From Thermoanaerobaculia bacterium (GTDB lineage Bacteria; Acidobacteriota; Thermoanaerobaculia; Multivoradales; Multivoraceae): a stretch of DNA of 64,000 nucleotides. How positions within the stretch are numbered: the first letter of the stretch is position 1; each line of letters opens with the position of its first letter. Shown here in pieces: positions 13,353 through 51,888 of the stretch. A program made the position numbers and the translations under genes. The notes beneath the pieces are model-generated. The model ran no database searches. It was given only the letters and a program-made list of their open reading frames with translations, and had not been told where the DNA came from. The stretch is from positions 2,022,797 to 2,086,796 of the forward strand of contig OY762911.1 of the NCBI GenBank assembly GCA_963666565.1. The letters are read 5' to 3'.

Positions 13353-14036
13353 ATGATCCTCAACGCGCAGCAAATCCGGCGGGCTGTGGAGGGCGGTGAC
13401 ATTCGGATCGAGCCGTACGACGAGGATCAGTTGCAGGCGGCCACCTACGACCTGCGGGTCGGTGCGCAGGGCGCGACGACCAGCACGAAGAAGGTGTTGG
13501 ACCTCCGTTCAACCGGCTATCTCTCCATCGAGCCTGGCGACTTCGCGGTCGTCACCGTGCGCGAGGAGATTGCGCTGGGGCCGCAGCACGCCGGACGCTT
13601 CGGGCTGCGCTCGAAGTACGCCCGCAAGGGCCTCATTGCAACGACGGGGCCACAGATCGACCCCGGCTTCCACGGACGGCTGATCCTCGGCCTCACGAAC
13701 CTGACGCCCAAGGCCATCACGCTCTCGCACGACGACGACCTCGTGTCGGTCGAGTTTCACCAACTCGCCGAGCCGACCGAGAAGCCGTACGACGGTCCGT
13801 TCCAGGGGAAGACGAAGCTCGGTCCCGAGGAAATCGAGATGATCACCGAGAGTTCCGGGGGCATGGCCTTCTCGGAGGTGCTGACCACGCTCAGCTCGCT
13901 GAGCAAGAACGTGGCGACCCTCTCAAGGGACGTGCACGAACTTTCGGCCTCGATGAAGACGCAGCGCTGGCTCGTGCCCGTGCTCTTCGGATTCGTCGCG
14001 CTGCTGATCGCGGTGTTCGGGTTCCTCGGCGGCTGA
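13353..14036 (+). CDS. dCTP deaminase (Dcd/dUTPase-fold)-like domain fused to a C-terminal TM-anchored domain
   Basis: MILNAQQIRRAVEGGDIRIEPYDEDQLQAATYDLRVG and IDPGFHGRLILGLTNLTPKAITLSHDDDLVSVEFHQL match the Dcd fold; about 90 extra C-terminal residues ending in a hydrophobic helix WLVPVLFGFVALLIAVFGFLGG. Confidence 0.6.
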   Translation: MILNAQQIRRAVEGGDIRIEPYDEDQLQAATYDLRVGAQGATTSTKKVLDLRSTGYLSIEPGDFAVVTVREEIALGPQHAGRFGLRSKYARKGLIATTGPQIDPGFHGRLILGLTNLTPKAITLSHDDDLVSVEFHQLAEPTEKPYDGPFQGKTKLGPEEIEMITESSGGMAFSEVLTTLSSLSKNVATLSRDVHELSASMKTQRWLVPVLFGFVALLIAVFGFLGG

Positions 14037-36154: not shown

Positions 36155-39100
36155 ATGACGACGCCCGAACAGGATCCGCGGATCCGCCTCGCCGAAGACG
36201 CCAGCCCGCTCCGGTTCGTGACGGCGGCGTCGCTCTTCGACGGGCACGACGCGGCGATCCACATCATGCGGCGCATGATCCAGGACCGCGGGGCCGAGGT
36301 GATCCACCTGGGCCACAACCGCGGCGTCGACGAGATCGTCCGCGCCGCGGTGCAGGAGGACGCCGACGCCATCGCGGTCAGTTCCTACCAGGGAGGCCAC
36401 ATCGAGTTCTTCCGCTACATGATCGACCGGCTGGCGGAGGAGGGCAGGGAAGACGTTCTCGTGTTCGGCGGCGGCGGCGGCACGATCACGCCGGAGGAGA
36501 TCGCGGAACTTGAGGCCTACGGCGTCGAGCGGATCTACCACCCCGACGACGGCCTGAAGATGGGTCTGCCGGCGATGATCGACGACGTCGTCGAGCGGGC
36601 GCACGCGAAGCGCCGGCCGGCGGCCGCCGAGCCGCGGTTCCGGGCGCGGATGGCGGCGGATCCCGGCGGCGACATCGAGCTCTCGGGGCTGTTGTCGGCG
36701 ATCGAGCGAGGCGCGCTGGACGAAGCCGAACTGCGCCGGCTACGCAAGGAGTGGCGCCTCGCCGGCGCCGGCGTGCCGGTCGTGGGCCTCACCGGCACCG
36801 GCGGCGCGGGCAAGAGCAGCGTCGCCGACGAACTGCTGAATCGCTTCCTCGATTCCATGCCGGAGGCCGCCTCTGAGATGCGGATCGCCCTGCTGGCGGT
36901 CGACCCGACCCGGCGGCGCACTGGCGGCGCGTTGCTCGGCGACCGCATCCGCATGAACAGCCTGCGCAGCGACCGCGCCTTCATGCGCTCGATGGCGACC
37001 CGCCGGCAGCACCGCGCCACCAGCGAGGTGCTGGGCGACGCGATCGCCCTGCTCAAGGCGTCCGGGTTCTCCATGGTCCTCGTGGAGACCGCCGGCATCG
37101 GCCAGAGCGACAGCGAGATCGTCGACCTGGTGGACCTCTCGATCTACGTGATGACCTCGGACTACGGCGCGGCCAGCCAGCTCGAGAAGATCGACATGCT
37201 CGACTTCGCCGACGTGATCGTGCTGAACAAGTTCGACCGGCGCGGCGGCCGGGACGCGCTGCGCGACATCCGCAAGCAGTGGCGTCGCAACCGCCTGGCC
37301 TTCCAGACCGCGGACGAGGACGTGCCGGTCTACCCGACGATCGCGAGCCAGTTCCAGGATCCCGGCGTCAACTGGATGTTCTGGAACGTCTGCCGGCTGC
37401 TGCAGGAGCGGCTCGACCTGGACGAGGAGGCGTGGACGCCGGAGATCGCACTGGACGAGCGCGAACCGAGCGCGGCGGCGCTGATCCCGGACAGCCGCAG
37501 CCGCTACCTCGCCGAGATCGCCGAGGCGAGCCGGGCCGCCGAGGCCGAGGCGGAGCGGCGCGCCGCCGCGGCGTCCAGGGCGCACGCCTGCTACCGGGCG
37601 CTGGCGGAACTCGACGACCCGGAGCTTCCCGAACCGCTCGCCGCGTACGCTGAGTCGGCGCTGGAGACGGCCCGCGGCGCCGGCGCCGAGTCGCCCGCTG
37701 GCGCAGGCGGGGAGACCGGCACGGGCGCGGCCGCCCGCGCCGCCACTCCCGACGTCGCCCGCGCCGCCGCGCCCTCCGGCACGGCCCCCGCCGCCGCTCT
37801 CGGCACGACCGCCGACGAGACCCTCTTGCGCCTGCGCCGGAGCTACCAGCAGGCGCTGGCGGAAGTGGGCGCCGGCGCGGCGGCACTCCTCCGCGCCTGG
37901 CCGGCCCGCGCCGCGGCCGCGCGTGCGGACCGGTACAGCTACCCGGTCCGCGGCCGCGAGGTCACCGGCGACAACTACGTCACGACGCTCAGCCACCTGC
38001 GGATGCCGAAGCTGGCCCTGCCCGAGTACTCGGACTGGGGCGACCTGCTGCGCTTCCTGCTGAAGCACAACCTGCCCGGCGCTTGGCCCTACACCGCCGG
38101 CGTTTACCCCTACCGTCGCCGCGGCGAGGAGCCGACGCGGATGTTCGCCGGCGAGGGGATCGCGGAGCGCACGAACCGACGGTTCCACTTCGTCTCGCGC
38201 GGCCAGCCCGCGAACCGCCTGTCCACCGCCTTCGACTCGGTCACCCTCTACGGCTCGGACCCCGGCGAGCGGCCCGACATCTGGGGCAAGGTCGGCAACT
38301 CGGGCGTCTCCATCGCCACGGTCGACGACATGAAGCGGCTTTACTCGGGCTTCGACCTGTGCGACCCCGCGACCTCCGTGTCGATGACGATCAACGGCCC
38401 GGCGCCGACCATCCTCGCCTTCTTCATGAACGCCGCCATCGACCAGCAGGTCGAACTGCACCTGCGCGAGACCGGCGGCTTGGAGCGGGCGCGGGCCGAG
38501 ATCGACCGGCTGTCAGGCGGCGACGTGCCGGTCTACCGCGGCGAACTGCCGGAGGAGAACGACGGCCTGGGACTGGCACTGCTTGGCATCTCGGGCGACC
38601 GGGTCGTCGAGCGCGAGGTCTACGAGCGCATCCGCGCCGACGCCCTGAGCCGGGTTCGGGGCACGGTGCAGGCCGACATCCTGAAGGAGGACCAAGCCCA
38701 GAACACATGCATCTTCTCGACCGAGTTCTCGTTGCGGACGATGGGCGACGTCCAGCAGTTCTTCATCGACGAGAACGTCCGCAACTACTACAGCGCCTCG
38801 GTCAGCGGCTACCACATCGCCGAAGCCGGCGCGAACCCGATCACGCAACTCGCGTTCACGCTCGCCAACGGCTTCACGATCGTCGAGTACTACCTCGCGC
38901 GCGGCATGGCGATCGACGACTTCGCTCCCAACCTGTCGTTCTTCTTCTCGAACGGGATGGACCCGGAGTACGCCGTGATCGGGCGGGTCGCCCGCCGCAT
39001 CTGGGCGCGCGCGATGCGCGAGCGCTACGGCGCCTCGGCGCGCAGCCAGATGCTCAAGTACCACATCCAGACCTCCGGCCGTTCGCTGCACGCGCAGGAG

Positions 39101-39760
39101 ATCCAGTTCAACGACATCCGCACCACGCTGCAGGCGCTCTACGGAATCCTCGACCGCTGCAACTCCCTGCACACGAACGCCTTCGACGAGGCGATCACGA
39201 CCCCGACCGAGCAGTCCGTCCGGCGCGCGCTGGCGATCCAGTTGATCATCAACCGCGAGTTCGGCCTCAACCGGAGCGAGAACCCCTGGCAGGGCTCGTT
39301 CGCCCTCGACCAGTTGACCGACGCCGTGGAGGAGGCCGTCTACCTGGAGTTCGAGCGCCTGTCCGAGCGGGGCGGCGTGCTGGCGGCGATGGACACGATG
39401 TACCAGCGCTCGAAGATCCAGGACGAGAGCATGGAGTACGAGGCGAAGAAGCACGACGGCAGCCTGCCGGTGGTCGGCGTCAACACCTTCCTCGCCGAGG
39501 GGCAGGAGCACGCCGAGACGGTCGAGGCGGAACTCATCCGCTCGACCGACGAGGAGAAGCGGCAGCAGATCGAGAGTCTGGCCTCCTTCCACCGCCGGCA
39601 CGCCGGCCACTCCGAGGCGTGTCTCGAACGCCTACAGGACGTCGCGCGGCGGCGGGGCAACGTCTTCGAGGAACTGATGGAGACGGTCAAGCACTGCTCG
39701 CTCGGCCAGATCTCGGACGCGCTCTACCGCGTCGGCGGCGAGTACCGGCGCAGCATGTAG
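36155..39760 (+). CDS. icmF: Fused isobutyryl-CoA mutase IcmF (B12-binding domain + MeaB-like GTPase + mutase catalytic domain)
   Basis: N-terminal B12-binding (DGHD), central G-protein (GLTGTGGAGKSS), C-terminal methylmalonyl-CoA-mutase-like barrel. Confidence 0.85.
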   Translation: MTTPEQDPRIRLAEDASPLRFVTAASLFDGHDAAIHIMRRMIQDRGAEVIHLGHNRGVDEIVRAAVQEDADAIAVSSYQGGHIEFFRYMIDRLAEEGREDVLVFGGGGGTITPEEIAELEAYGVERIYHPDDGLKMGLPAMIDDVVERAHAKRRPAAAEPRFRARMAADPGGDIELSGLLSAIERGALDEAELRRLRKEWRLAGAGVPVVGLTGTGGAGKSSVADELLNRFLDSMPEAASEMRIALLAVDPTRRRTGGALLGDRIRMNSLRSDRAFMRSMATRRQHRATSEVLGDAIALLKASGFSMVLVETAGIGQSDSEIVDLVDLSIYVMTSDYGAASQLEKIDMLDFADVIVLNKFDRRGGRDALRDIRKQWRRNRLAFQTADEDVPVYPTIASQFQDPGVNWMFWNVCRLLQERLDLDEEAWTPEIALDEREPSAAALIPDSRSRYLAEIAEASRAAEAEAERRAAAASRAHACYRALAELDDPELPEPLAAYAESALETARGAGAESPAGAGGETGTGAAARAATPDVARAAAPSGTAPAAALGTTADETLLRLRRSYQQALAEVGAGAAALLRAWPARAAAARADRYSYPVRGREVTGDNYVTTLSHLRMPKLALPEYSDWGDLLRFLLKHNLPGAWPYTAGVYPYRRRGEEPTRMFAGEGIAERTNRRFHFVSRGQPANRLSTAFDSVTLYGSDPGERPDIWGKVGNSGVSIATVDDMKRLYSGFDLCDPATSVSMTINGPAPTILAFFMNAAIDQQVELHLRETGGLERARAEIDRLSGGDVPVYRGELPEENDGLGLALLGISGDRVVEREVYERIRADALSRVRGTVQADILKEDQAQNTCIFSTEFSLRTMGDVQQFFIDENVRNYYSASVSGYHIAEAGANPITQLAFTLANGFTIVEYYLARGMAIDDFAPNLSFFFSNGMDPEYAVIGRVARRIWARAMRERYGASARSQMLKYHIQTSGRSLHAQEIQFNDIRTTLQALYGILDRCNSLHTNAFDEAITTPTEQSVRRALAIQLIINREFGLNRSENPWQGSFALDQLTDAVEEAVYLEFERLSERGGVLAAMDTMYQRSKIQDESMEYEAKKHDGSLPVVGVNTFLAEGQEHAETVEAELIRSTDEEKRQQIESLASFHRRHAGHSEACLERLQDVARRRGNVFEELMETVKHCSLGQISDALYRVGGEYRRSM

Positions 39761-39890
39761 CGCCGCCGACCGCCGCGCATGCCGGGTCCGTTGACGGCGA
39801 AGAACTGCGGCATATCTGCGCTCGCCAATGCTCAGGCCGAGCTACCAGTCATGCGCCAGGTTCCAGCCAGCTCCAGCGAGTCGTAGTCCT

Positions 39891-40877
39891 TCATCGCCTG
39901 GCCCGAAGCGGCCTGAAGAACAACTCCAGTTCGTTGACCTTCTCCTTGCGGGGCAACCTGAGTGTTCCACTGTCCAGGATACTCCCGGTGACCTCGATCG
40001 CGTAGACGCCGAACACATCGTCGTCTTCGACGTCGATGTCAACCACACTGATCAAGAGCGTGTCGCCTTCGTAGACCTTCACGAGCGTGCCGGACCGACG
40101 GAAGTTGTACCGGCCTGACTTCCTGGATCGCTCGGGTGTTCGCCCCCGGACAAGCCGCTCGACGCAGGCCAGTTCTAGCCTGTACCGTCCTGAGGCCGCG
40201 TTCAACATGGATTGCTGAATCGGTATCTCGTACCTTCGAGCCCTCTCGGCATCGGACAGCGGTGGGCTTGGCTTGCGCTTGCTGGCCTCATCCTTCGCTT
40301 CGAGCTCGGTGAGTTCCGTTTCGCGTAACGACACTTCGGCGGAGCTGAGTTGCAGCCTGCCTTCCGAGTACGCCTGCGTTTCGGACTTCAGTTGGTTCAT
40401 CCGCGTGCGCTCGCTCTCGGTTAGTGGCAGCTTCGGCTTTGACAGCTCGTCCTTCTGGACGAGTGCCGACAGCTCGGCCTGGAGGCGCTCCACCCTTGCG
40501 GCGATCTCCGCCAGACCGGTGCCGAGGTCGTCGACCAGCCCTTCCATCCTCAGGTCCTGGCGTTCCACGCGCACCTGGACGTCGGCCCCACTCAGGAAGT
40601 CCATCGCGCTTTGGCCTGAAACGCTGAGAGCGCCAACGCCCAGGCCATGGGCGCGGCTGGTTGGCAGGAGGTCGGAAGCCGACTCGCAAGAAGGCGGATC
40701 GAGCGGCACCGGCTCTTGTTGCAGAGACCAGGCTGGACCGCCAGCGAGAACTCCAAGACTGACCGCGATGAGGAACCGCGCCGGATCGACCGACCGCCAA
40801 GCTGCGACTGCCGGAGCGCCCCGGTGGCGGCTCCGCACCCGCTGTCGCGCACTCTCTTTCCCCATTCTGGCGGTCAC
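39891..40877 (-). CDS. Hypothetical coiled-coil protein with PL(S/T)(D/E)xExxR repeats and a conserved C-terminal VYEGD...FRP domain (paralog of 43199-44629)
   Basis: Lower-GC region; clear similarity to the downstream paralog in the coiled-coil, repeat and C-terminal roughly 65 aa regions. Confidence 0.5.
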   Translation of the reverse strand: MTARMGKESARQRVRSRHRGAPAVAAWRSVDPARFLIAVSLGVLAGGPAWSLQQEPVPLDPPSCESASDLLPTSRAHGLGVGALSVSGQSAMDFLSGADVQVRVERQDLRMEGLVDDLGTGLAEIAARVERLQAELSALVQKDELSKPKLPLTESERTRMNQLKSETQAYSEGRLQLSSAEVSLRETELTELEAKDEASKRKPSPPLSDAERARRYEIPIQQSMLNAASGRYRLELACVERLVRGRTPERSRKSGRYNFRRSGTLVKVYEGDTLLISVVDIDVEDDDVFGVYAIEVTGSILDSGTLRLPRKEKVNELELFFRPLRARR

Positions 40878-41035
40878 GACTCTTCTGTCTCCTCGGCCTT
40901 GAGCGGCGCCGAGATGCGGAGAACAGCGGCGCCGGTGTCGTCCGTTGTCTCAACCTCGCATCTGGTGGGCGTTGCATCGGCTGAGGCAAGGCTGATTGTC
41001 GATCCCATGGAGAGATCACTCTAACCTGAGAACGG

Positions 41036-41067
41036 GCTTGTAGTAGCGAGCAAGAACGTGTAGCTGG
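41036..41067 (-). promoter_or_regulatory. Conserved upstream motif CTTGTAGT-N14-ACGTGTAGC (copy 1)
   Basis: About 80 percent identical to 49099-49130; both lie about 150-200 bp upstream of minus-strand gene starts in the accessory cluster; coordinates approximate. Confidence 0.35.
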
Positions 41068-41158
41068 CCGATCGGCCTGGGTCGCTCAAGGGTCTCGTCC
41101 GGGATCGTGACCTTCCCCCGGCGAAGCTAGGGGAACGCGTGCGCGGGGAACGGGTCGC

Positions 41159-41503
41159 CTACTGGCACGGAAACGCCGTGATGTCCGACTTCGTGGTGGC
41201 GGTCGCGCCCTGCGGGTTGCCGTGCGTCCAGCGGCTGCCGTCGGGTCCCGTAATCCACAGGTTGAAGTCCAGGGTCGTCACCGGCGCCACGAACGCCCAG
41301 CGGTGGCCGTTGACTTGGCAACCGTCGAGCACCTTGACGAGAACCTCGGGGTTGTTGCGGCCGAAGAACCACAGAATGCCGGCCTCGCTGGACCAGGCTT
41401 CGGCCTTGACCGGGCCCGACTCGCCCTCTTGCGTGACGTAGCACATGCTGACCTCGAAGCCGCCGTCGAAGCGGAGGGCCACGGTCGTGGGCGTGCAGGT
41501 GCC
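41159..41503 (-). repeat. Dispersed about 340 bp repeat copy 1 (encodes the shared four-Cys domain)
   Basis: About 80 percent nucleotide identity to 44893-45231 and 48054-48392. Confidence 0.7.
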
Positions 41504-43060
41504 GACGGGATCCTCGGCCGGTCCGGAATCCGGGTCCGGGTCGGGGTCCGGATCCGGATCGGGCGAAGGCGTTCGCGGGCGTCTGTCGGCGAAACCGTCC
41601 TTGATCCAGTCGAACACCTTCGTGTTGGCCACGGTGCCGCGCACGTTCTCCGACGTGCGGCCGACCGCGTAGATCATCACGTCTTCGCCGGCGTGGGTCT
41701 CCAGGAACAGCGGGACCGTCGCCTCCTGCCGATATGCCGTGTGGCTGGTGCTCGTGGGAACGGCGCCGCCGCGGCCCGGCGTCCTGTCGCTGTTCGGATT
41801 GACCCGCGAACCGCTCCGGTGGCCCGGCCCGTTGGCGTAGCCCAGGATGGTGTAGGGAATGCCCCCCGAGTCGCCGCTCTCCGAGATCGTGCCGCCGCTG
41901 TCTATGTCGTGAACCGTTCCCAGGATGCCGTTGTGCGGCTGGTTGCGGAACGACGCGGGCACCGAGCGGGGGCTGTAGCGCAGGTCGCCGAGCGGCCGCA
42001 TCGGGTAGCCGGCGATCGTGAAGACGTGGCTGTGGTCCGCGGTCGCGAGGATCAGCGTCCTGTTGAGATTGACGCTCCGCTGCGCGGCGGCGATCGCTCG
42101 ATCGAACATCCGGGTGTCGGTGAAGGCGCGATAGGCGTTCCCCTCGTGGTGCGCGTGGTCGATCCGTCCCCCTTCGACCATCAGGAAGTACGGCTTTCCC
42201 GTGGCGGCGAGAATCTGGATCGCCTTCCTCGTCATCTCCTCCAGGCTCGGCTCGCCGCTGTCCCGGTCCGTTTCGTACTCCAGATGACTCGACGCGAACA
42301 GGCCGATCGCGCGGCCGGAACCGCCCAGCGAGTTGAGTCCCTGCCGGTTCCAGACGTAGCGGTAGCCCCGCTCTCGCAGTTCGTTTCGCAGATCGCGGCC
42401 GTCCGATCGGCTCCCTGGAAGTCCCTCGTCGTCCGATGCGGAAGTGGGAAGGAAGTGCCGTCGGCCGCCTCCGAAGACGACGTGGAGGCCCTGTCCGAGG
42501 CGGTCGTTGTATCCGCCGCCGCCCGGCGTCATCTGCCTGGCGATCTCGTTCTCCAGGTTGCGGTCGTTGACGTGCCCGAAAACGGCCGCCGGCGTCGCGT
42601 GGGTGACCCGCGTCGTCGTCACGATGCCCACTGCGTAGCCCATCGATATGGCCAGTTCGCCGATGTTGGTCAGCCTCGCGCTGTTGCCGTTGCCGTTGAA
42701 GTCCGCGTACTCGGTGGCCGGGCCGTAGCCGATCACGCCCGTGTTCGTGTTGACGCCGGTCATCATCGCCGACATCGTGGCGGCGCTGTCGGGGGTGATG
42801 TAGTCGGCCGACGCCGTGCGCGAGATGGCGGTGTAGGGCATGCGGTCGAGCGCCAGTTGCCCGTCGACGCCGACCGTCGCGATGCGGGTGGACGTGACGG
42901 TCGACACCCCCATGCCGTCGCCGACGAACAGGATGACGTTGTTCCTCTGCGCGGCCGCGGGCAGTGCCGCCGCCAGCAGGAGTGCGATGGTTGAGAGAGT
43001 GCTCAACGACGGGACGAGATTTCCGCGCACGCTTCCGATCTGCACGACACGACTCTTCAT
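41159..43060 (-). CDS. Alkaline phosphatase (PhoA family) fused via a (PD)n linker to a C-terminal roughly 114 aa four-cysteine domain
   Basis: Signal peptide; PhoA motifs (VGDGMG, TDSAATMSA, DHAHHEGN, ADHSH); linker PSPDPDPDPDPDPD; C-terminal domain shared with two neighbouring genes. Confidence 0.8.
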   Translation of the reverse strand: MKSRVVQIGSVRGNLVPSLSTLSTIALLLAAALPAAAQRNNVILFVGDGMGVSTVTSTRIATVGVDGQLALDRMPYTAISRTASADYITPDSAATMSAMMTGVNTNTGVIGYGPATEYADFNGNGNSARLTNIGELAISMGYAVGIVTTTRVTHATPAAVFGHVNDRNLENEIARQMTPGGGGYNDRLGQGLHVVFGGGRRHFLPTSASDDEGLPGSRSDGRDLRNELRERGYRYVWNRQGLNSLGGSGRAIGLFASSHLEYETDRDSGEPSLEEMTRKAIQILAATGKPYFLMVEGGRIDHAHHEGNAYRAFTDTRMFDRAIAAAQRSVNLNRTLILATADHSHVFTIAGYPMRPLGDLRYSPRSVPASFRNQPHNGILGTVHDIDSGGTISESGDSGGIPYTILGYANGPGHRSGSRVNPNSDRTPGRGGAVPTSTSHTAYRQEATVPLFLETHAGEDVMIYAVGRTSENVRGTVANTKVFDWIKDGFADRRPRTPSPDPDPDPDPDPDSGPAEDPVGTCTPTTVALRFDGGFEVSMCYVTQEGESGPVKAEAWSSEAGILWFFGRNNPEVLVKVLDGCQVNGHRWAFVAPVTTLDFNLWITGPDGSRWTHGNPQGATATTKSDITAFPCQ

Positions 43061-43198
43061 GGCCCAGACCCTCCTTCGTTGGTGCCCGGCCCCGGCAAGG
43101 GGCTTCATCGTCGGGATCGCGCCGCTCTTCAGCCGACCCGATGCCGACTCTTCCAACGATGGTAGTGGACTTGGCCTCAATCGGAGACTCGGCGGCCC

Positions 43199-44629
43199 CT
43201 ACCGAAGAGCGCCGGGCCGGAACTTCAACTCCACGTACTCCACGTCCGTCATGCGGGCGCGGAGAACTCCCTCTTCAAGCGTCCGACGATCGAGGACGAC
43301 CGTCGTCCTGCCGTAGAGGTCGTCGTACAAGACGTCCGCGTCCCAGACCTCGACGTCCAGTTCGTCTCCCTCGTAGACGGTGAGGATCTCGCGGTCGCCG
43401 AAGTTCACCACGGGACTCGACGTCTCCACCTTGCGCGTCCGAGCCGAGAGCAGGGCATCGAGCCGAGCCTGCTCCTCCTGCGCTTCGGCCCTCTCCTGCT
43501 GCAGGGTGCCGAGGTTCGCGGTCAGAGCCGTGAGGCGGACGGACTCCGACTCGGTCAGCGGGTCACCGGGAACGACTTCGCTTTCCGCCTTCCGCTCGGT
43601 CAGGTACTCAAGTTCGCGGCACATCGCGCACCGTGGGCAGGGATCCCGTTCGTCGAACGGGCTGCACGCCGCGCAGGCGGTCTCCGTGTAGACGGCGCAC
43701 GAGTGCGACACTTCGGCATCGAGTTCCCGCAGCCGTGCCAACTGGGTGTCGCTGAGAGGATCGCCGACAGCGACCTTGCTGGCCGTGTCCCTGGCCTCGA
43801 GTACTTCCAGTTCCGCCACGACCGCAGCTTGTTCCTCGGCCAACTCCGCCACCCTGCCGCCCAGCCAGTCCATAGCTCCCTGGATCTCGGGAACGTGCCG
43901 CCGGACCTGCACGAACGGATCGGGGTCCGAACTGGAGTCCTGGCGGTGCTTCCTGACGCGCATGACGCCGACGGAAAGGATGTACGGCGCCCGGCGATCC
44001 GGGCTGGCCACGCCCGGGCCACACGCCTTCTCTCCCTCGGTCGCGGGGTGCAGAGTCGAAGCGTGAACCCATCCGCGAGTGATGGGATCGTCGCCCAGAC
44101 GGGCCGAGGACGGTGCCGGATTCCGCGGCCCATGGTGTGCGGCATACAGCCAGCAGTTCCGCCTTTCGCGGACGTACACGAGTTGATCGTTGGAGGCTTG
44201 GAAGTCCATGGCGGCCGCGGCATGAGCCGGCGCTCGCCGGAAAGGCGCGCCCTCGCTCAGCATGCCGATGCGTAGCCATTCGTGGCGTTGTTTCAACTCC
44301 GCGGACAAGCCGCTGGTGTCCAGCACGCTTCGGCAGCCGGGCAACTCGTCCCGAGCGAACCGCAGATGGACACGCTCGCCGAGGAACTCAAGGACGCCCG
44401 AGGCTTCGCTCTCGCCCCGGGAAAGTGCTTCGGGATCGGACGACGCTTCGATCCGGAAACGTGGCGTCCGGCCTCGTCTCGTTTCCTCGCCAGCGAAGAA
44501 AAAGGAGCAGCCGAACTGCGGAAACGATGCCGAGCCGTTGCCGATCCGGAACTGCTCGTGGTAGCCCGTCAGCGAGCCGCTGGCCGGGTCGAAGGCGATC
44601 ACGGTGTCTCCGTCGTTACCCGGCACCAC
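43199..44629 (-). CDS. Hypothetical protein: N-terminal unknown domain, CxxC/CPRC zinc-ribbon-like motif, coiled coil, PL(S/T)(D/E) repeats, C-terminal VYEGD...FRP domain
   Basis: Paralog of 39891-40877; GTG start per the ORF track; no signal peptide evident. Confidence 0.5.
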   Translation of the reverse strand: MVPGNDGDTVIAFDPASGSLTGYHEQFRIGNGSASFPQFGCSFFFAGEETRRGRTPRFRIEASSDPEALSRGESEASGVLEFLGERVHLRFARDELPGCRSVLDTSGLSAELKQRHEWLRIGMLSEGAPFRRAPAHAAAAMDFQASNDQLVYVRERRNCWLYAAHHGPRNPAPSSARLGDDPITRGWVHASTLHPATEGEKACGPGVASPDRRAPYILSVGVMRVRKHRQDSSSDPDPFVQVRRHVPEIQGAMDWLGGRVAELAEEQAAVVAELEVLEARDTASKVAVGDPLSDTQLARLRELDAEVSHSCAVYTETACAACSPFDERDPCPRCAMCRELEYLTERKAESEVVPGDPLTESESVRLTALTANLGTLQQERAEAQEEQARLDALLSARTRKVETSSPVVNFGDREILTVYEGDELDVEVWDADVLYDDLYGRTTVVLDRRTLEEGVLRARMTDVEYVELKFRPGALR

Positions 44630-44766
44630 CTGCGCCCACGAGGGCGCCGCGAACGGCAGTGCCGAAGCGAAGAGGGCAAGGAACCCGCGCCAGACTGAAC
44701 GGCCGTACTCGGAGCCAGTGAACGTGCTTGACGGCCGCGGTCGGTCGTGGTGGTTGTCCGGGAGTA

Positions 44767-47340
44767 TCAGGGCACTCTCTCCCCTCGTTCCGACTGCGCC
44801 GAGATGCGAAGAACCGCGGCGCCGGTGTTGCCCGTCACATCCACTTTCCCGTCATCATCGCCGTCCCCGTCGTCGTCATCATCCTCGTTCGCGCACTGGA
44901 ACGCGTTCGTGTCGCTCCTGGTCGAGGCCGTCTGGCCTTGCCGATTGCCGTGCGTCCACCGGGTGCCGTCCGGGCCCGTTATCAAGAGATTGAACTCCAG
45001 GGTCGTGACCGGCGCCACGAACGCCCAGCGGTGTCCGTTGTGCTTGCAGCCGTCGAGCACCTTGACCAGAACTTCCGCGTTGCCCCGGTCGAAGAACCAC
45101 AGGATGCCGGACTGGCCGGATGCCCAGACGCCGGACCTGGCCTGGCCCCCGTCTCCGTCGGGCGTGCGGTAGCACATGCTGACCTTGTAGCCGCCGTCGA
45201 ACTGAAGCGCGGTCGTCGTCGGCCTGCAGCCCATGGTCGGCGGAGCTGGGCGGTCACCTTCCCGAACCACGCGGATGTCGTGACCGGAAGGCGCCAGCAC
45301 CAACTCGTAGCGGTTGCCCCGCCAGGTGAACGGCCTGTCGGGGAGGAGCGCACCAGGCCTCGTCCTGTTTCCGTCCACGTCTTCGGTGAAGTCGCACTCG
45401 TTCAGCCAGCCGTTCCGGTCGAGGTCGAGGCAGACGAAGTCCTTGTCGTCCTCGGGCAGCGCGTCAGATGGGGAGTCGAACCGTCCGTCGCCGTTCCCAT
45501 CGACAGCCAGCGCCAGCAGCCGCCCTCCCGACGGCAGCTCGACTTCGCCCCTCCAGACGCTGGACGGGCCGTACACGAGACCGTTCGACAAGTCGCCGCG
45601 CTGGGCGGACATCGTAATGGCGTAGGGCAGGACCAGCCCCGACGCATAGGGCACTTCCAGAACCGCCCCGGTTGTCCCCACAGCCCACGGACGCTCCGTG
45701 TTCCACGCCGTGAGCAGCGGCGGTCCGTCGTCGGTGAGATTTCGGTTCCTGTTCCGATCAACCCAAACGCGGATGAACCGGTTCTGGAAGTACGACGAGT
45801 AGTACCCACTCGCCGCGAACCGTTCGACATCGCAAAGCTGAGGCAGGAGCACCGTCGGGCAGGACTCGGGTCTCCTATGGCTGTCGACGAGGATCTCGAA
45901 CCGGCCTCCCGCGTCTCCAAGCTCAAGAAACTGGTAGGACGCCGAGTCTCCCCGAACTGCCGGATAGACCACGTCGGATGGCCGACTTGCATGAACCTGT
46001 ACCCGCTGAGTGATGTGGAGGCCGGTGTAGCCGCTCAGCCTGCCGTTTCGGCTCACGAAGGCGAGTCCGCGGCCGTCCGTGTTGTCGTCCATCCGGTCCC
46101 CGATGCCGTCGCCGTCCGTGTCCCGCTGCTCCCGCGGGTTCAGAGGGAAGGCGTCCGCGGCGTTACTCACGCCGTCGCCGTCGGCGTCCCGGTCCAGTGC
46201 GTCGGCGATGCCGTCACCGTCCGTATCGCGCCAGTCTCGGTGGTCCAGAGGCAGAGCGTCGATGAAGTCCGGTGCTCCGTCGCCGTCGTCGTCAAGGTCG
46301 GTCCGATTCGGCGTGCCGTCGCCGTCAGTGTCGTTCGCGGTCCCTGGGCGCGCCAGCGCGGCGCCGGACGACAGCCACTCGAAGATCTCTCTCGGGGGCG
46401 TGTCGCCAGACGAGCAGTGACCGCCGGGCGCATCCAGATCCGCGCGGGTTTCCAGGCCCAGCCAGTCTGAGTAGTACCTCGCCATCGACTCGGCGTCCTG
46501 ATGCAGGAAGTCTCCCGTCGTGGCTTCCACGAACACGCGAAAGCGCTCCCTCACGAACTGGGCGGCGAATGGGGTCCACTGAAACGAGGGCCTCCACGGT
46601 GCGTGGTGGAACGGCGGAGCGACGGCGTAGGTGTCGTGCGAGGCGTCGCCGTCGAAATCCAGCCAGAAGCACCCGCAATGCGCGTGAAAGCCACCGCCGT
46701 AGCTGCCGCCGTAGAACTCCATGAACTGCGCCAGGAAGCAAGTGCCCTGGGAGCCGCCGGCGAAGACGATTCGGTCGTGGTCGAGAGCAAGCCGCGACTT
46801 CAGGTTGTTCTGGAGCAGTTCATGGATCAGGCGCGCGTCTTCGCCTTGCCAGAACCGGGTTCCTCCCGCGCCGACTGCTTCGGGGAGCAACGTGCGTTCA
46901 CCGAATGAGATCTCCTCCGGCACCGAGTTGGGAGACGCCGGCACGATCAGCGCCAGCCCAAGATCCAGAGCCGTATCGACGTGCTGGTACCTGGGCTGCC
47001 GCAGCTCCTCGGCCGTTCCCCTGTTGTTCCCGTGGAAGAAAACGACCGCTCCGCGAGGCGTCGTCGGATCCCAGCCGCTCCTCACCCAGTACCGGTAGAG
47101 GAGAGTCCGGCCGGTGGAATCGGTGAACGAGTCATCGTGCCATACCGTGGACTGCCCTTGGACGGCGCCGGAAGCGGCGAGGAGCGCAACTGTCAGCGCC
47201 CAACGTCGTCGTCCGAGTCTCCGAGTCAGCGCCTGCCGGGAGAGTCGCATCAGTTCTGCACAGTCCGCCAGGGTCGTCCCCATCGCTTGTTCTCTCACCT
47301 TTTGCCGCCCTTCGATGGATGCACGGGATTCAACTCGCAC
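44767..47340 (-). CDS. Secreted multidomain protein: alpha/beta-hydrolase (GGSQG serine esterase), thrombospondin type-3 Ca-binding repeats, unknown middle region, shared four-Cys domain, acidic tail
   Basis: Signal peptide; VVFFHGNN...FAGGSQGTCF; DTDGDGxxD TSP3 repeats x4-5; C-terminal domain about 90 percent identical to that of 47388-48953. Confidence 0.65.
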   Translation of the reverse strand: MRVESRASIEGRQKVREQAMGTTLADCAELMRLSRQALTRRLGRRRWALTVALLAASGAVQGQSTVWHDDSFTDSTGRTLLYRYWVRSGWDPTTPRGAVVFFHGNNRGTAEELRQPRYQHVDTALDLGLALIVPASPNSVPEEISFGERTLLPEAVGAGGTRFWQGEDARLIHELLQNNLKSRLALDHDRIVFAGGSQGTCFLAQFMEFYGGSYGGGFHAHCGCFWLDFDGDASHDTYAVAPPFHHAPWRPSFQWTPFAAQFVRERFRVFVEATTGDFLHQDAESMARYYSDWLGLETRADLDAPGGHCSSGDTPPREIFEWLSSGAALARPGTANDTDGDGTPNRTDLDDDGDGAPDFIDALPLDHRDWRDTDGDGIADALDRDADGDGVSNAADAFPLNPREQRDTDGDGIGDRMDDNTDGRGLAFVSRNGRLSGYTGLHITQRVQVHASRPSDVVYPAVRGDSASYQFLELGDAGGRFEILVDSHRRPESCPTVLLPQLCDVERFAASGYYSSYFQNRFIRVWVDRNRNRNLTDDGPPLLTAWNTERPWAVGTTGAVLEVPYASGLVLPYAITMSAQRGDLSNGLVYGPSSVWRGEVELPSGGRLLALAVDGNGDGRFDSPSDALPEDDKDFVCLDLDRNGWLNECDFTEDVDGNRTRPGALLPDRPFTWRGNRYELVLAPSGHDIRVVREGDRPAPPTMGCRPTTTALQFDGGYKVSMCYRTPDGDGGQARSGVWASGQSGILWFFDRGNAEVLVKVLDGCKHNGHRWAFVAPVTTLEFNLLITGPDGTRWTHGNRQGQTASTRSDTNAFQCANEDDDDDGDGDDDGKVDVTGNTGAAVLRISAQSERGERVP
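44893..45231 (-). repeat. Dispersed about 340 bp repeat copy 2
   Basis: About 95 percent nucleotide identity to 48054-48392. Confidence 0.75.
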
Positions 47341-47387
47341 AGAGCCTCTGTCGGGTCGTCGTCATGCGGCGGCTCCCTCGCGGCCCT

Positions 47388-48953
47388 CTACCTCCTGGTC
47401 TCTACCCAGGTACCGGCCGTAACCGTTCTCCCTTCGATCCGGCAGGTGCTCGCGTCGCATGTGTACCGATAGGGACGCCTCTCGACGTAGCCGTTCCGAG
47501 AACAGCGCACGTTCGTTTTGCCACCGGAGTTGCTGAGGGAACACCTCGACAACCCGCCGTTGAGGCTCCACGAATCCGAGGGCAACGTCGTAATGACGTC
47601 ACCGACGTTGTACCTGGTTCCCGACCCGCCGCCGCCGCTGACCGTCACGCGGACGCCGCTGGAACAGTTGTTGCCGGTGTTCGATTCGCCCGACACGGAA
47701 TCCACGCAGGCGCCGTAGTAGTACGTGCCCGCGCTGGACGGCGCCGTCAGGCTGATCGACTCGGCACTGGAGCTCGAGGCGGAGAGGACACCGACCGAAT
47801 CCGTGCCGACCTGCGTGTCGGAGGTGCCGATGCTGGAGTTCGACGAGCGGTAGTAGCGCAGCGTCGTGGCGGCGGAGCGACCGTCGCCCTGGTTGCGCAC
47901 CGTGGCGCGGAGCGTGAAGCGGTCGCCCGCGCTGAGGCTGCTGTCGCTGACCGACGGGCTCGACACCACGAGGTCGGGCGCCGACGTTGGTTCGTCATCG
48001 TCCCCGTCATCATCACTGTCGTCCCCGTCATTGTCGTCATCACCATCGGTCGCGCAAGCGAACGCTCTGTTGTCGCTCTTGGTCGAAGCCGTCTGGCCTT
48101 GCCGGTTGCTGTGCGTCCACCGCTTGCCGTCCGGTCCCGTGATCCAGAGGTTGAACTCCAGGGTCGTGACCGGCGCCACGAACGCCCAGCGGTGTCCGTT
48201 GTGTGTGCAACCGTCGAGCACTTTGACCAGAACTTCCGCGTTGCCCCGGTCGAAGAACCACAGGATGCCGGACTGGCCGGATGCCCAGACGCCGGACTTC
48301 GCCTGGCCCACGTCCCCAGCGGGCGTGCGGTAGCACATGCTGACGTCGTAGCCGCCGTCGAAGCGGAGCGCCGTTGTCGTGGGCCTGCAGCCTGCGGTTG
48401 GCGGGGGGTCGGGATCGGGATCCGGCGGCTGACTTTCTTCGGACGTTGCGCGCACTTCGCATCCGGTGGGCGTTGCTCCAGAGACCGTCCCGGTCATGTG
48501 GAAGGTCCTGGTCTGGTTGGCCTCCATCCTCCCGAGGAGCTGATTGCCTATCTGGCGCCGCCCCGGCTCGATATAGCCCCGTACCCTGACGTTCCTGACG
48601 GACCGTTGGGCCGTCACGCTCCCGCCGATGGTCGCGTTCCAGGTGCTGCCGGCGGTCTGGTCAGCCCTGCAGGTCGTGACGCGGCCGGTCAAGGCCGGGC
48701 CGGACGCTGCTGCATGGACGGATTCGGTGTCACCGGCGGCGGCATTGACGAACACCGTGCTCGGTGCGGCGTGCAGAGGCACTTCCCAGGCAACAAGTTC
48801 CCGGTCCTGCTGAGCGGCCGATGGCGCCGAAACGGCCATGGTCAACGCCATCAGCGTCAGCAGGACGGCGGGTCGAGGAACGCGAACGCCTCCGGCTCCG
48901 TTCCCTCCGCGGGTCTGGCGCTTCTGGCTCGGGCCGATCATTGTGTTGTTCAT
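47388..48953 (-). CDS. Secreted multidomain protein: unknown N-domain, PDPDPD linker, shared four-Cys domain, poly-acidic linker, CARDB-like domain, Cys-containing C-terminal domain
   Basis: Signal peptide; CARDB-like region LVVSSPSVSDSSLSAGDRFTLRATVRNQGDG; shared domain GCRPTTTALRFDGGYDVSMCY...AFAC. Confidence 0.6.
   Translation of the reverse strand: MNNTMIGPSQKRQTRGGNGAGGVRVPRPAVLLTLMALTMAVSAPSAAQQDRELVAWEVPLHAAPSTVFVNAAAGDTESVHAAASGPALTGRVTTCRADQTAGSTWNATIGGSVTAQRSVRNVRVRGYIEPGRRQIGNQLLGRMEANQTRTFHMTGTVSGATPTGCEVRATSEESQPPDPDPDPPPTAGCRPTTTALRFDGGYDVSMCYRTPAGDVGQAKSGVWASGQSGILWFFDRGNAEVLVKVLDGCTHNGHRWAFVAPVTTLEFNLWITGPDGKRWTHSNRQGQTASTKSDNRAFACATDGDDDNDGDDSDDDGDDDEPTSAPDLVVSSPSVSDSSLSAGDRFTLRATVRNQGDGRSAATTLRYYRSSNSSIGTSDTQVGTDSVGVLSASSSSAESISLTAPSSAGTYYYGACVDSVSGESNTGNNCSSGVRVTVSGGGGSGTRYNVGDVITTLPSDSWSLNGGLSRCSLSNSGGKTNVRCSRNGYVERRPYRYTCDASTCRIEGRTVTAGTWVETRR
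48054..48392 (-). repeat. Dispersed about 340 bp repeat copy 3
   Basis: See copies 1 and 2. Confidence 0.75.
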
Positions 48954-49098
48954 GGTGACCGTGTCTCCTTGGTCCGGTTGGCCGCCAGGTCTCCTGCCCT
49001 TCCGCCGTCAACACCCGGCGATTTGCCGCGACGGACGCGCGCTTCGCGTTTACCGAAGACGCGCTCTTCATCATGCTCGTCAGCCTACGACGGACGCG

Positions 49099-49130
49099 GC
49101 TTGTAGTGCCGAGGAGAAACGTGTAGCCGG
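49099..49130 (-). promoter_or_regulatory. Conserved upstream motif CTTGTAGT-N14-ACGTGTAGC (copy 2)
   Basis: Upstream of the first gene of the minus-strand cluster (start 48953); see copy 1. Confidence 0.35.
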
Positions 49131-49151
49131 TCGCGGTGGCGCGGCAGCCGG

Positions 49152-51845
49152 TCAGGAGTCGCCGGGGATCAGGCCCATGTCCCAGGCCCGCCGGACGGCC
49201 TCCGCCCGATTGCGGGTGCCGAGCTTGGCGAAGATGCTCCGCAGGTTGTACCTCACGCCATGCGTCGTCAGACCCAGTTCGGCGGCGATCTCCTTGTCGC
49301 GGCGACCCGGCAACCGGTGCAGCACTTCAAGTTCGCGCTCGCTGAGCGACGGCGCCGAACCATCGTCCGCGTCGCACATCGCCAGGAGCGAACGGGCGGC
49401 TGGCCGGTGGGAGGCGTCCGCGCCGAGCTCGAGGTACATCCGCAACGCGTCCGCGCAGGTTGCCTGGTCCCGCACCAGGGGCCAGGCGTAGGGCGACTCG
49501 ACGAACAGCCTTAGGTACTCCGTCAGATGCCGCAGGCTCGCCTGGGTGTCGCCGGCCTGCTGTTCCAGCGAGACGGACAGCGCCAGGGCGCGCATCTCGA
49601 CGGTGCGGAGGCCCAGCTCGGCCGCAACCGAGCGTAGCCGGCGCAGCAACGAGCGCCCTTCCTCCCACCGTCGGCCCGCGATCGACAATCGGGCGCGAGC
49701 TTCCGAAACGGCCTCCATTTCCCTCCAGCTCTGAGCCGTCAGATCCACGCAGTCCTCAGGCTCCTCCGGCAACGCCTCCCGCCGCCAGGCGCGCTCGGCT
49801 TCCGTCGTGCGGCCGGCGATCGCCAGCACCGATATCCGGAGCGCGACGATCAGTCTCAGGAAGGCGGTCAATCCGGCCCTGCGTGAACGAAGCACCAGCT
49901 TGTCTGCCACGGCGAGAGCCTCTTCGACCTGTCCGGACCCGAGTCTGGCGCCGATCAACACGTTGCTGGCCGTTGCGAAGTACGAGAAGGGCACGCCGTG
50001 GCGCGTCAACACGCTCAGTACGCCGGGCGGGTTGGCGGCTGCCGAAGCCGGGTTGCATTCCAGGGCGATTTCGTGCCGCACGAGATCGCAGCTCGTGGTC
50101 GCCGTGGGATCGAGCATGAAGCACTTCCTGGCAATCCGCCGTGCTCTGCGGCAGTGTGCCCGGGCGTCCCGTGGCCGGCCCCTCACGAAGTCGATCTGGC
50201 CATGCAGGATTCCTCCGTACAGCGCGATGTAGTCGGTACCGGTGGACTCGAGCGCCGCGGAGAGCGTGTCGAGAGCGTCGGCGAACTCTCCCTTCAGAAA
50301 GTGGAGGATGCACAGCCCGTACTCGAACCCGCCGCGCTTGGCCGGGGCCAGATCCGCATCCGCCGTCAGCCGGGCGATGTCGCGAAGCAGGGCCTCCGAC
50401 GAGTCCGACCCGACGGGAGATATCCCGTACAGGGCCAGGCAGAAGCGAGCGGTGAGATGCTCCAGGCGGTAGCGGAAGTCGTCCTCGTCGTCGCTGGCGG
50501 GGACAGGACGGGGACACGTCCGGTAGAGATCCCGAGCTTGGTCGCCACGTCCGGTAAGCGCCAGCGTGACGCATCTGAGGAGCTTGAGTCGCGGCGATTC
50601 GGCGACGACAGCCTCGCTCAACAGGCGGTTCGCTTGCTGCAACTCCGGGACGCCGTTGCGCATCCACAAGCGTACCCCGCCCGCCTGTTCGGCAATCCGA
50701 CCGGCGAGGAACGGATCGCGCCCCTCGATCGCGTGGCGCATGGCCGCTATCGTCTCGCGGCGTTTCGCCAGGGCGGCGGCGATGCGCCGATGGATGGCGG
50801 CGAAGCGTTCCGGGTCTTCGCGAAGCCGCCTGGCGGCGCAGTGCTCTCGCACCAGCGGATGCAGCCGCCAGCGCCGGGTTTCGCCGTCGCTCAGCGGCTC
50901 AAGCAGCCCGGTCAGCGCGGCCATCGACTCGAAGCGGCGCATCGAGTCGTTTCGTTGCAGGACTTCGTCCAACAGCGCCGCGTCGGTCCAGTCGAGCAGG
51001 GACATGTCCAGAACGAAGTCCCGGTCGCCGCGCCCGAGAGGCGCGAACAGGCGGGACTCGATCCAGTTTCCGAGGAAGCCATGCCCACTGTCGCGGTCGT
51101 CGTGCGCTTCGTGTTGCATACCGTTGCGGGCAATGCGCAGTGCGACCGGCCATCCGGCTGAACGGTCGATCTCTCTCGCCAGGGCTCGGCGGGAAAGGCG
51201 GAGACCGAAGAACCTGGCCACCTCCGCTCGGGAGAACCTCAGGTCTTCGGTTTCCACGGCCTCCGCGTGGCCCGCCAGCAGGGGACTGGCCACATCGAGG
51301 CCGTCCGGGATCTCCCGGCCCGCCAAAGCCAGGTGCAGATTGGAGGGGCCGCGTTGCAGGAGCAACGTCAGGAGCGGGACGGAGGCGGGATTCAGACGCT
51401 CCAGCTCGTCGAACGCAATGACGAAGGGTCTTCCGAGGGACTCGATTCCGTGCAGAACGGTGCCGATCCGGCTCGCCGGTCCAGCGCGCGTTTCCCTCAC
51501 GGGCGGCACGTCGCCCAGGTTCAACCCGGCCTCGGCGCAGGCGAAGGCGATGTAAACGTCGAGTACGCCGGGCTCGTCGTTCTCGTCCAGCGAAATCCAG
51601 GCCGTGGCGACCCCGTCCCGGCGGACTCGGCGGCAGCACTCCGCCATCAGGGTCGTCTTCCCGAAACCGCCGGAGGCCCTCAGCACCGAGAGCTTGCGGC
51701 GCGTGGGCAGCGCCCGCTTCTCGAGTTCCGGCCGGCTGAGGTAGCCGGCCACCCTGTCCGGGATCGCGACCTTCCGCCGCAGCAGCCAAGGGAACGCGCG
51801 CGCGGGGAAGGACTCCGCGGGCATTCCTCGCGACGCTCCGGTCAT
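49152..51845 (-). CDS. Large ATP-binding LuxR-family transcriptional regulator (LAL / MalT-like)
   Basis: N-terminal P-loop (GGFGKTTL), long helical/TPR-like middle, C-terminal LuxR HTH (LSERELEVLHRLPGRRDKEIAAELGLTTHGVRYNLRSIFAKLG). Confidence 0.8.
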   Translation of the reverse strand: MTGASRGMPAESFPARAFPWLLRRKVAIPDRVAGYLSRPELEKRALPTRRKLSVLRASGGFGKTTLMAECCRRVRRDGVATAWISLDENDEPGVLDVYIAFACAEAGLNLGDVPPVRETRAGPASRIGTVLHGIESLGRPFVIAFDELERLNPASVPLLTLLLQRGPSNLHLALAGREIPDGLDVASPLLAGHAEAVETEDLRFSRAEVARFFGLRLSRRALAREIDRSAGWPVALRIARNGMQHEAHDDRDSGHGFLGNWIESRLFAPLGRGDRDFVLDMSLLDWTDAALLDEVLQRNDSMRRFESMAALTGLLEPLSDGETRRWRLHPLVREHCAARRLREDPERFAAIHRRIAAALAKRRETIAAMRHAIEGRDPFLAGRIAEQAGGVRLWMRNGVPELQQANRLLSEAVVAESPRLKLLRCVTLALTGRGDQARDLYRTCPRPVPASDDEDDFRYRLEHLTARFCLALYGISPVGSDSSEALLRDIARLTADADLAPAKRGGFEYGLCILHFLKGEFADALDTLSAALESTGTDYIALYGGILHGQIDFVRGRPRDARAHCRRARRIARKCFMLDPTATTSCDLVRHEIALECNPASAAANPPGVLSVLTRHGVPFSYFATASNVLIGARLGSGQVEEALAVADKLVLRSRRAGLTAFLRLIVALRISVLAIAGRTTEAERAWRREALPEEPEDCVDLTAQSWREMEAVSEARARLSIAGRRWEEGRSLLRRLRSVAAELGLRTVEMRALALSVSLEQQAGDTQASLRHLTEYLRLFVESPYAWPLVRDQATCADALRMYLELGADASHRPAARSLLAMCDADDGSAPSLSERELEVLHRLPGRRDKEIAAELGLTTHGVRYNLRSIFAKLGTRNRAEAVRRAWDMGLIPGDS

Positions 51846-51888
51846 TCGGCGATCTTACCGGGGACGCCTACTGCTAGATTGCCCGCCC

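Follow-up and report, generated by a model that had tools for sequence, protein, structure and literature searches.

What do two copies of a short, directly repeated motif do in a 64,000-nucleotide stretch of DNA from a Thermoanaerobaculia bacterium (contig OY762911.1, positions 2,022,797 to 2,086,796), and which protein recognizes them? This whole stretch is referred to below as the window, and positions are counted from its first letter. The copies lie beside a cluster of genes read from the minus strand, next to a gene encoding a large ATP-binding regulator of the LuxR family (LAL). Comparison of the window with related loci makes it probable that both copies are sigma-70 promoters without a -35 element, which are activated by the adjacent LAL acting on two boxes in direct repeat.

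Two box sites in the window

The two sites share the minus-strand sequence GCTACACGTT-N10-ACTACAAGCC (site 1, 41064-41035; site 2, 49127-49098), which on the plus strand is CTTGTAGT-N11-ACGTGTAGC. Each site contains a direct repeat of CTACA with a period of 20 bp, that is, the TGTAG starts are 20 bp apart with N15 between the pentamers. The elements of the two sites are as follows.

49118-49127, minus strand: site 2 box 1, GCTACACGTT; distal candidate LAL box, near -52 to -43 relative to the predicted start
49098-49107, minus strand: site 2 box 2, ACTACAAGCC; proximal candidate LAL box, 20 bp past box 1, overlapping the place of a -35 element
49082-49087, minus strand: site 2 -10-like hexamer TAGGCT, 14 nt past the CTACA of box 2; ATG 49074 follows 7 nt on
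41055-41064, minus strand: site 1 box 1, GCTACACGTT
41035-41044, minus strand: site 1 box 2, ACTACAAGCC
41018-41023, minus strand: site 1 -10-like hexamer TAGAGT, 15 nt past the CTACA of box 2; ATG 41008 follows 9 nt on

The two sites were identical at 20 of 20 box positions and at 5 of the 10 spacer positions. Apart from the boxes, only the T, A and T of the -10 hexamer were kept between them, and the spacer and flanks had diverged. As in an activator-dependent sigma-70 promoter, a -10 element stood at a fixed distance from the boxes and no -35 consensus was present. Site 2 box 1 begins about 25 nt past the stop codon of the LAL gene, and site 1 lies within the 281-nt gap that precedes the last gene of the cluster (39891-40877). 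From the start of box 1 to the gene start, 186 nt were counted for site 1 (GTG 40877) and 173 nt for site 2 (ATG 48953).

Simple patterns with controls provided support that was independent of any trained model. The pattern TGTAG-N8-25-TGTAG occurred exactly twice in the window (41039-41063 and 49102-49126) against a chance expectation of 0.09, and two or more occurrences were found in none of 100 shuffles. CTACA-N15-CTACA with at most one mismatch was found in the same two places only, with 0.29 expected. A position-weight matrix built from 38 sites in related loci scored the two sites at 50.7 and 44.1 bits, whereas the next best score in the window was 7.2 bits and the best score in the reversed sequence was -1.3 bits. 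By the same scan, neither the internal genes nor the LAL gene had a comparable site in front of them in the window. A promoter scan of 39500-52200 found no canonical -35/-10 promoter. The region scanned for terminators contained one weak terminator-like site, inside a gene, and none at the box sites.

These measurements bear on the original prediction, which had been made from the letters of the window. The motif pair that it described does exist, but its spacing was wrong: the literal form CTTGTAGT-N14-ACGTGTAGC was unmatched even with three mismatches, the real spacer being N11, and the half-sites, given there as about 17 bp apart, have a true period of 20 bp. Its placement of the motif about 150-200 bp upstream of the gene starts agrees with the distances measured here. 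The claim that the internal genes lack a comparable motif was borne out by the scan, and the presence of just two sites fits the two transcription units that had been proposed.

Two simple explanations may be considered at this point, namely that the similarity is due to chance and that the sites are a structured RNA element, such as a 3' untranslated region or a terminator of the LAL gene. Only the position just past a stop codon speaks for them. Chance is excluded by the pattern counts, the shuffles and the reversed-sequence controls. As for RNA, the folding energies were no better than those of shuffled sequences (z +0.95 and +0.59), no Rfam match was found in 38000-53000, no terminator-like site there coincided with the boxes, and the repeats are direct, not inverted. 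This pair of explanations is therefore extremely improbable.

The ATG codons lying 7-9 nt past the -10 hexamers may reflect leaderless transcripts or coupled upstream open reading frames (ORFs). ATG 49074 opens an ORF of 114 codons that is out of frame with the CARDB gene, the first gene after site 2. ATG 41008 opens an ORF of 44 codons; its stop codon TGA and the start codon GTG of the 328-aa gene after site 1 overlap (GTGA). In the orthologous locus L001, the equivalent ATG (position 7951) is the called start of a 617-aa gene. The G+C content at third codon positions in 40700-40990 did not clearly favour the annotated frame.

Conservation of the sites and linkage to the LAL orthogroup

Orthologous loci were gathered through homologs of the LAL and of a 476-aa protein of the cluster, and through a scan with a LAL profile, with one genome per species (75 loci). 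The loci of the Multivorans-like clade were syntenic: genes for an AMP-binding enzyme and a 2-hydroxyacid dehydrogenase stood on one side and a gene for an IcmF-like mutase on the other, and between these flanks lay the LAL gene, a PhoA-like gene and a variable set of genes for large secreted proteins. All loci of this clade (including L001 and L004-L014) had the box architecture 21-285 nt past the LAL gene; in L004, one extra base made the period 21 bp. Elsewhere in Acidobacteriota, and in many metagenome-assembled genomes (MAGs) of Gammaproteobacteria, in which the LAL was 52-60% identical, a version with a period of 19 bp followed the LAL gene. The gammaproteobacterial loci carried one more copy of the box, the third, in inverted orientation (GTGTAGTC) about 20 nt upstream; their -10 element was extended by TGn. 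Extra inverted copies of the box (GTGTAGTCAC and GTGTAGTGAC) were also seen in L013 (12880-12940), just downstream of its box promoter.

A consensus scan of 1.66 Mb of loci gave 41 matches, 37 of which had TAnnnT 13-16 nt past box 2; the reversed-sequence control gave four matches, none with TAnnnT. In an alignment of 38 sites, between 33 and 38 had the conserved base at each position of the CTACA core; for the -10 element, T, A and T were kept in 35, 37 and 36 sites, respectively. G was enriched just upstream of the -10 element, giving TGn in the gammaproteobacterial loci. The consensus of the boxes was rrCTACACGwTT and ccACTACAmg, with CTACA as the core. The motif, whose absence from orthologous clusters or random occurrence throughout the genome would have spoken against the original prediction, was present in the orthologous loci and was not scattered through the window.

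Linkage of the sites to the LAL was nearly absolute; the null maximum was 16.2 bits. Where the LAL was at least 52% identical and at least 300 nt of its 3' flank was available, a site of at least 27 bits was found in 26 of 26 loci, and in 24 of these it lay 21-285 nt past the LAL gene on the same strand; in the two others it was divergent from the LAL gene (L016) or upstream of it (L021). Where the LAL was at most 51% identical, one of about 40 loci had a site. Among the genes of the window, only the LAL was common to all 32 motif-bearing loci, which belong to two phyla. An actinomycete as the host did not fit these data: the LAL homologs and the closest loci were from Acidobacteriota, the nearest being Candidatus Multivorans of the class Thermoanaerobaculia.

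The geometry and its conservation also bear on whether each site is a promoter of an alternative sigma factor, for example of the extracytoplasmic function type, with CTACA as its -35 element and the LAL merely as a neighbour. The -35 region does lack a TTGACA-like element, and a conserved element stands there in all sites. However, the downstream element is TAnnnT, frequently with TGn, which is of the housekeeping type, and CTACA lies 14-15 nt from the hexamer, not the 16-18 nt expected between the -35 and -10 elements of a sigma factor. Moreover, a second copy of the core stands 19-20 bp upstream, and a third, inverted one is present in the gammaproteobacterial loci; a sigma factor has no need of such copies. 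A sigma-factor domain was found in none of the gene lists of five orthologous loci (L001 and L004-L007), and the motif followed the LAL orthogroup across phyla. The original prediction had named both a shared alternative-sigma promoter and binding sites for the adjacent LAL as possible roles. Because of the housekeeping-type hexamer, its spacing and the repeated core, the former is quite improbable. The latter is favoured, as the architecture tracks the LAL orthogroup and the LAL is the sole gene shared by the motif-bearing loci.

Among more distant LALs (alphaproteobacterial homologs and paralogs of 31-45% identity), no CTACA box was found nearby, and only variant cores were present (L061, L065 and L055/56/62). 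Two paralogous LALs of 35-36% identity, L061 and L065, have the recognition helix HLKNIY instead of HLRKLF, and their loci have the same layout with a CTACC core and an inverted GGTAG copy. These two loci hint that box and recognition helix change together.

If a different transcription factor, either an activator or a repressor encoded elsewhere, bound the boxes, the linkage to the LAL would be indirect. In favour of such a factor, the LAL is the binder of the boxes by prediction from comparison, and alphaproteobacterial LALs with a similar helix occur without the box. Against it stand the presence of the LAL, as the sole gene, in all motif-bearing loci of both phyla, the short distance (21-285 nt) between the 3' end of the LAL gene and the site, seen in 24 of 26 loci, and the variant core that goes with the variant LAL helix in the two paralogous loci. 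Because the LAL is the only shared gene, this explanation, although possible, is unparsimonious, and it was considered unlikely.

The LAL regulator

49152-51845, minus strand: LAL regulator of 897 aa (MalT-like STAND ATPase and LuxR-type helix-turn-helix, HTH), the proposed activator

The true start of the gene is probably near 51803; in a tblastn search with the LAL ortholog from L001, the alignment started at 51797. The C-terminal LuxR/GerE-type HTH was recognized by the Pfam model GerE at 38.7 bits (cut-off 23.5) in residues 833-887. The Pfam models TPR_MalT (41.2 bits, cut-off 45) and AAA_16 (29.2 bits, cut-off 32.6) scored slightly below their thresholds. The NCBIfam MalT model matched residues 22-425 with an E-value of 1e-42, and a profile of the LAL family matched the MalT structure 8bob with an E-value of 1.5e-27, as well as GerE, NarL, ComA and VraR chains in the HTH part. 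The Walker A motif GGFGKTT, as in a STAND/AAA ATPase, was invariant in 30 LAL homologs, and precomputed matches to PF25873 (WHD_MalT) and PF17874 (TPR_MalT) were listed for nearly all homologs. By these matches, the protein has the predicted architecture of a LAL/MalT regulator.

Identification of the protein as MalT proper was rejected; it scored 146 bits against the NCBIfam cut-off of 537 bits, and MalT boxes were present at neither promoter. A single-sequence search of the PDB with the LAL was also discarded, as it returned spurious ubiquitin matches only; the profile search was informative instead.

At least 633 homologs of the LAL were found by database search. Those of 52-60% identity included proteins from Pseudomonadales, Ca. 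Azotimanducaceae and Ca. Rariloculaceae (Gammaproteobacteria). The gammaproteobacterial LALs were as close to the acidobacterial query as some acidobacterial LALs were, which suggests transfer of the LAL between phyla. In some genomes, several LAL paralogs lay within a few kb of one another (L022 and L024, NZ_OZ253579.1), and L054 and L064 contained tandem LAL genes.

Proposed mechanism

It is proposed that each site is an activator-dependent promoter of the housekeeping sigma factor, with a -10 hexamer and without a usable -35 element. Two asymmetric boxes, centred near -30 and -50, would take the place of the latter; because of the 20-bp period, they would lie on the same face of the helix. 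Once nucleotide and ligand had caused its STAND ATPase/TPR part to oligomerise, the LAL would bind the boxes through its C-terminal LuxR-type HTH, and the bound LAL would recruit RNA polymerase. Site 2 would drive the block of CARDB, thrombospondin-type-3-repeat (TSP3), 476-aa and PhoA-like genes, and site 1 the 328-aa gene. The sequences show the architecture of the sites, their uniqueness in the window, their conservation and their linkage to this LAL orthogroup. From these we infer binding by the LAL, its action as an activator rather than a repressor, and transcription starts about 7 nt past the hexamers, near 49075 and 41010; the role of activator is assigned on the basis of position, linkage and family precedent.

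Several observations weigh against this mechanism. Box 2 is centred near -30; the sites of classical class II activators (-41.5) and the proximal MalT box both lie farther from the -10 element. HTH domains of the LuxR type more often bind inverted repeats, as dimers. The comparison covered loci around the LAL, which leaves room for distant sites or another regulator. The weight matrix behind the window and linkage scores was trained on the very sites that it scores. In alphaproteobacterial homologs that are 45-50% identical, the recognition helix is very similar, and no box stands within 10 kb. Finally, an unbiased pattern scan of metagenomes, of low power, gave 23 matches, most of them due to chance; two (L089 and L099) were beside LAL homologs; 18 of the others were in AT-rich contigs, and three (L093-L095, 52-66% GC) had no LuxR-type ORF nearby. 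Three unrelated AT-rich metagenome contigs (L086, L098 and L101) carried tandem TACTACACGATT-like repeats with a period of about 20 bp, which are possibly iterons of another system.

Genes of the cluster

The genes next to the LAL were taken from the ORF list and, where a family is named, from Pfam matches.

47388-48953, minus strand: CARDB protein, unit 1
44767-47340, minus strand: TSP3 protein, unit 1
43199-44629, minus strand: 476-aa protein of a family without assignment (ORF list), unit 1
41159-43180, minus strand: PhoA-like alkaline phosphatase, unit 1
39891-40877, minus strand: 328-aa protein, unit 2 under site 1
41159-48953, minus strand: proposed transcription unit 1 under site 2, four genes with intergenic gaps of 47, 137 and 18 nt

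Inside the unit 1 block, the scans found no other box site and no canonical promoter. Two units would thus be the operon structure predicted from the sequence; read-through from unit 1 into unit 2 is possible because no terminator was found.

The ORF of the 328-aa protein is a real gene, and its product is paralogous to the C-terminal half of the 476-aa protein (BLASTP, 30% identity over 261 residues, E-value 5e-17). In its N-terminal region, the 328-aa protein contains a hydrophobic, signal-like segment. Together with the C-terminal half of the 476-aa protein, it belongs to a very rare family, for which a word-indexed search of 5.8 billion proteins returned four homologs; tblastn also detected the domain in the gammaproteobacterial LAL loci L015, L018, L027 and L038. 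The structural model shows a beta-sandwich broken by a long helical hairpin, with weak matches only, to C2-domain and MacA-like folds.

Three proteins of unit 1 shared an all-beta domain of about 115 aa, in which four Cys residues are conserved (…ILWFF.R.N.EVLVKVLDGC..NGHRWAFVAPVTTLEFNL…).

48039-48410, minus strand: copy in the CARDB protein
44872-45243, minus strand: copy in the TSP3 protein
41162-41509, minus strand: copy in the PhoA-like protein

These copies were 70-86% identical, and the domain recurred in many proteins of the orthologous loci. It had no match in Pfam. It matched 7833 cluster representatives (E-value at most 1e-3), in many cases at the very C-terminal end of proteins of up to 6814 aa. 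For its AF2 model (pLDDT 70), no fold match was found in the PDB. The domain may be a sorting or anchoring module.

The G+C content of the cluster region (38000-52000) was 0.66-0.68, compared with 0.70-0.75 in the flanks, which would fit a segment that was acquired or is evolving fast.

Genes past the predicted box promoters in related loci

The first ORF past 27 box promoters nearly always encoded a signal peptide at its start. Pfam domains in these 27 first ORFs included CARDB (10), leucine-rich repeat (LRR) families (5) and PPC (4), together with Ig-like and cadherin-like domains and peptidases of the S8, M10 and trypsin types. The gene content past the site differed even among close relatives. 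Between the LAL 3' end and the ATG past the -10 element, the window (compared over 48880-49175) hardly differed from L001, L004 and L008; beyond that ATG the sequences diverged. Contigs L004, L008 and L040 ended within a few hundred bases past the box promoter. Taken together, the sequences suggest strain-level replacement of the downstream genes. In L001, the place at which the window has site 1 and the 328-aa gene, between the PhoA-like and IcmF-like genes, is occupied by two tandem repeats of about 118 bp (13640-13860) with the palindrome CTGCGAGC-N5-GCTTGCAG.

This variability raises the question of whether the sites are recombination sites or cassette boundaries, that is, direct repeats flanking an exchangeable block of 8 kb, and promoters only incidentally. 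The differing gene content, the abrupt end of similarity just past the -10 element and ATG, the contig ends soon after the site, and the two window copies that bracket the four-gene block would all agree with this. However, the gene lists of L001 and L004-L007 contained no integrase, transposase or recombinase domains. The -10 element at a fixed distance, always directed at the following ORF, which in most cases encodes a signal peptide, is needed by a promoter, not by a recombination site. Furthermore, most loci had a single copy, and the repeats are direct rather than inverted-repeat cores. Such a role as the primary function is very improbable. A passive role of the promoter as a homology anchor for gene replacement may exist alongside activation by the LAL and is compatible with it.

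The loci appear to be associated with sponges, judging from many isolate names that resemble those of marine-sponge metagenome bins. It is conceivable, though we regard it as a tentative idea and rather doubtful, that the LAL gene and the CTACA-box promoter constitute a portable regulatory module, exchanged across phyla of bacteria that live with hosts (apparently sponges). The module would sense the host or niche and act as a switch for hypervariable cassettes of secreted adhesion-type and eukaryote-like proteins, and the promoter would double as a homology anchor for cassette exchange.

Significance

Surface proteins with LRR, cadherin-like and CARDB domains are thought to mediate attachment to hosts. 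For the control of such proteins in uncultured symbionts, the present analysis offers a cis-element and a candidate regulator, common to MAGs of Acidobacteriota and Gammaproteobacteria. It also offers a candidate binding site for a LAL subfamily outside actinomycetes and enterobacteria, and the box can be used as a search key for listing the regulon in complete genomes. As a putative promoter with activator boxes for a MalT-like regulator, the system is of a known kind. It gains interest because the two partners, regulator and box, appear to travel together across phyla, ahead of variable genes for secreted proteins.

Comparison with known systems

The actinomycete LALs PikD, RapH and AveR are large ATP-binding LuxR-family regulators of adjoining antibiotic clusters. 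The LAL described here also stands beside its putative targets, but it belongs to Acidobacteriota and Gammaproteobacteria, and these targets are genes for secreted CARDB, LRR, Ig-like and peptidase proteins. Sequence-level orthology between PikD, RapH or AveR and this LAL was not found and is not claimed. Literature searches on this LAL subfamily, its box, the Candidatus taxa or regulators of such secreted proteins returned nothing relevant.

Sponge-associated MAGs, including those of Acidobacteriota, were reported to be enriched in genes for LRR, cadherin and fibronectin-III proteins (PMC8163846). That work concerns gene content only; LuxR is absent from its main text, and a regulator or promoter is not described in it. 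The genes past the box promoters encode LRR, cadherin-like, Ig-like and CARDB proteins.

In Actinoplanes sp. SE50/110, a LuxR/MalT-like activator is encoded within a large, maltose-regulated genomic region that is horizontally mobile and prone to rearrangement (PMC7567727). Its motif lies over the -35 region of 17 start sites, is conserved in related genomes and is a palindrome, TCATCC-5nt-GGATGA; start sites and MalT dependence were measured (PMC7567727). In contrast, the boxes described here are direct repeats of another sequence and occur at one to three predicted promoters per locus.

A close parallel in promoter design is E. coli MalT, although box and targets differ. The box here is of the CTACA type, not GGGGA(T/G)GAGG; matches to MalT boxes in the window numbered 12 against 15.5 expected, with none at the two promoters. 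The putative targets here are secreted surface-type proteins rather than maltodextrin genes, and the proximal box is nearer to the -10 element. As summarised in a later paper, the MalT-dependent promoters malPp and malEp/malKp have no -35 element and carry several short asymmetric boxes, including direct repeats, the proximal one lying over the -35 region (PMC7567727, citing Vidal-Ingigliardi et al. 1991). The box promoters of this locus also lack a -35 element and have their boxes in direct repeat, and the predicted domain order of the LAL, a STAND ATPase followed by a putative MalT-type winged-helix and TPR part and a LuxR-type HTH, is that of E. coli MalT.

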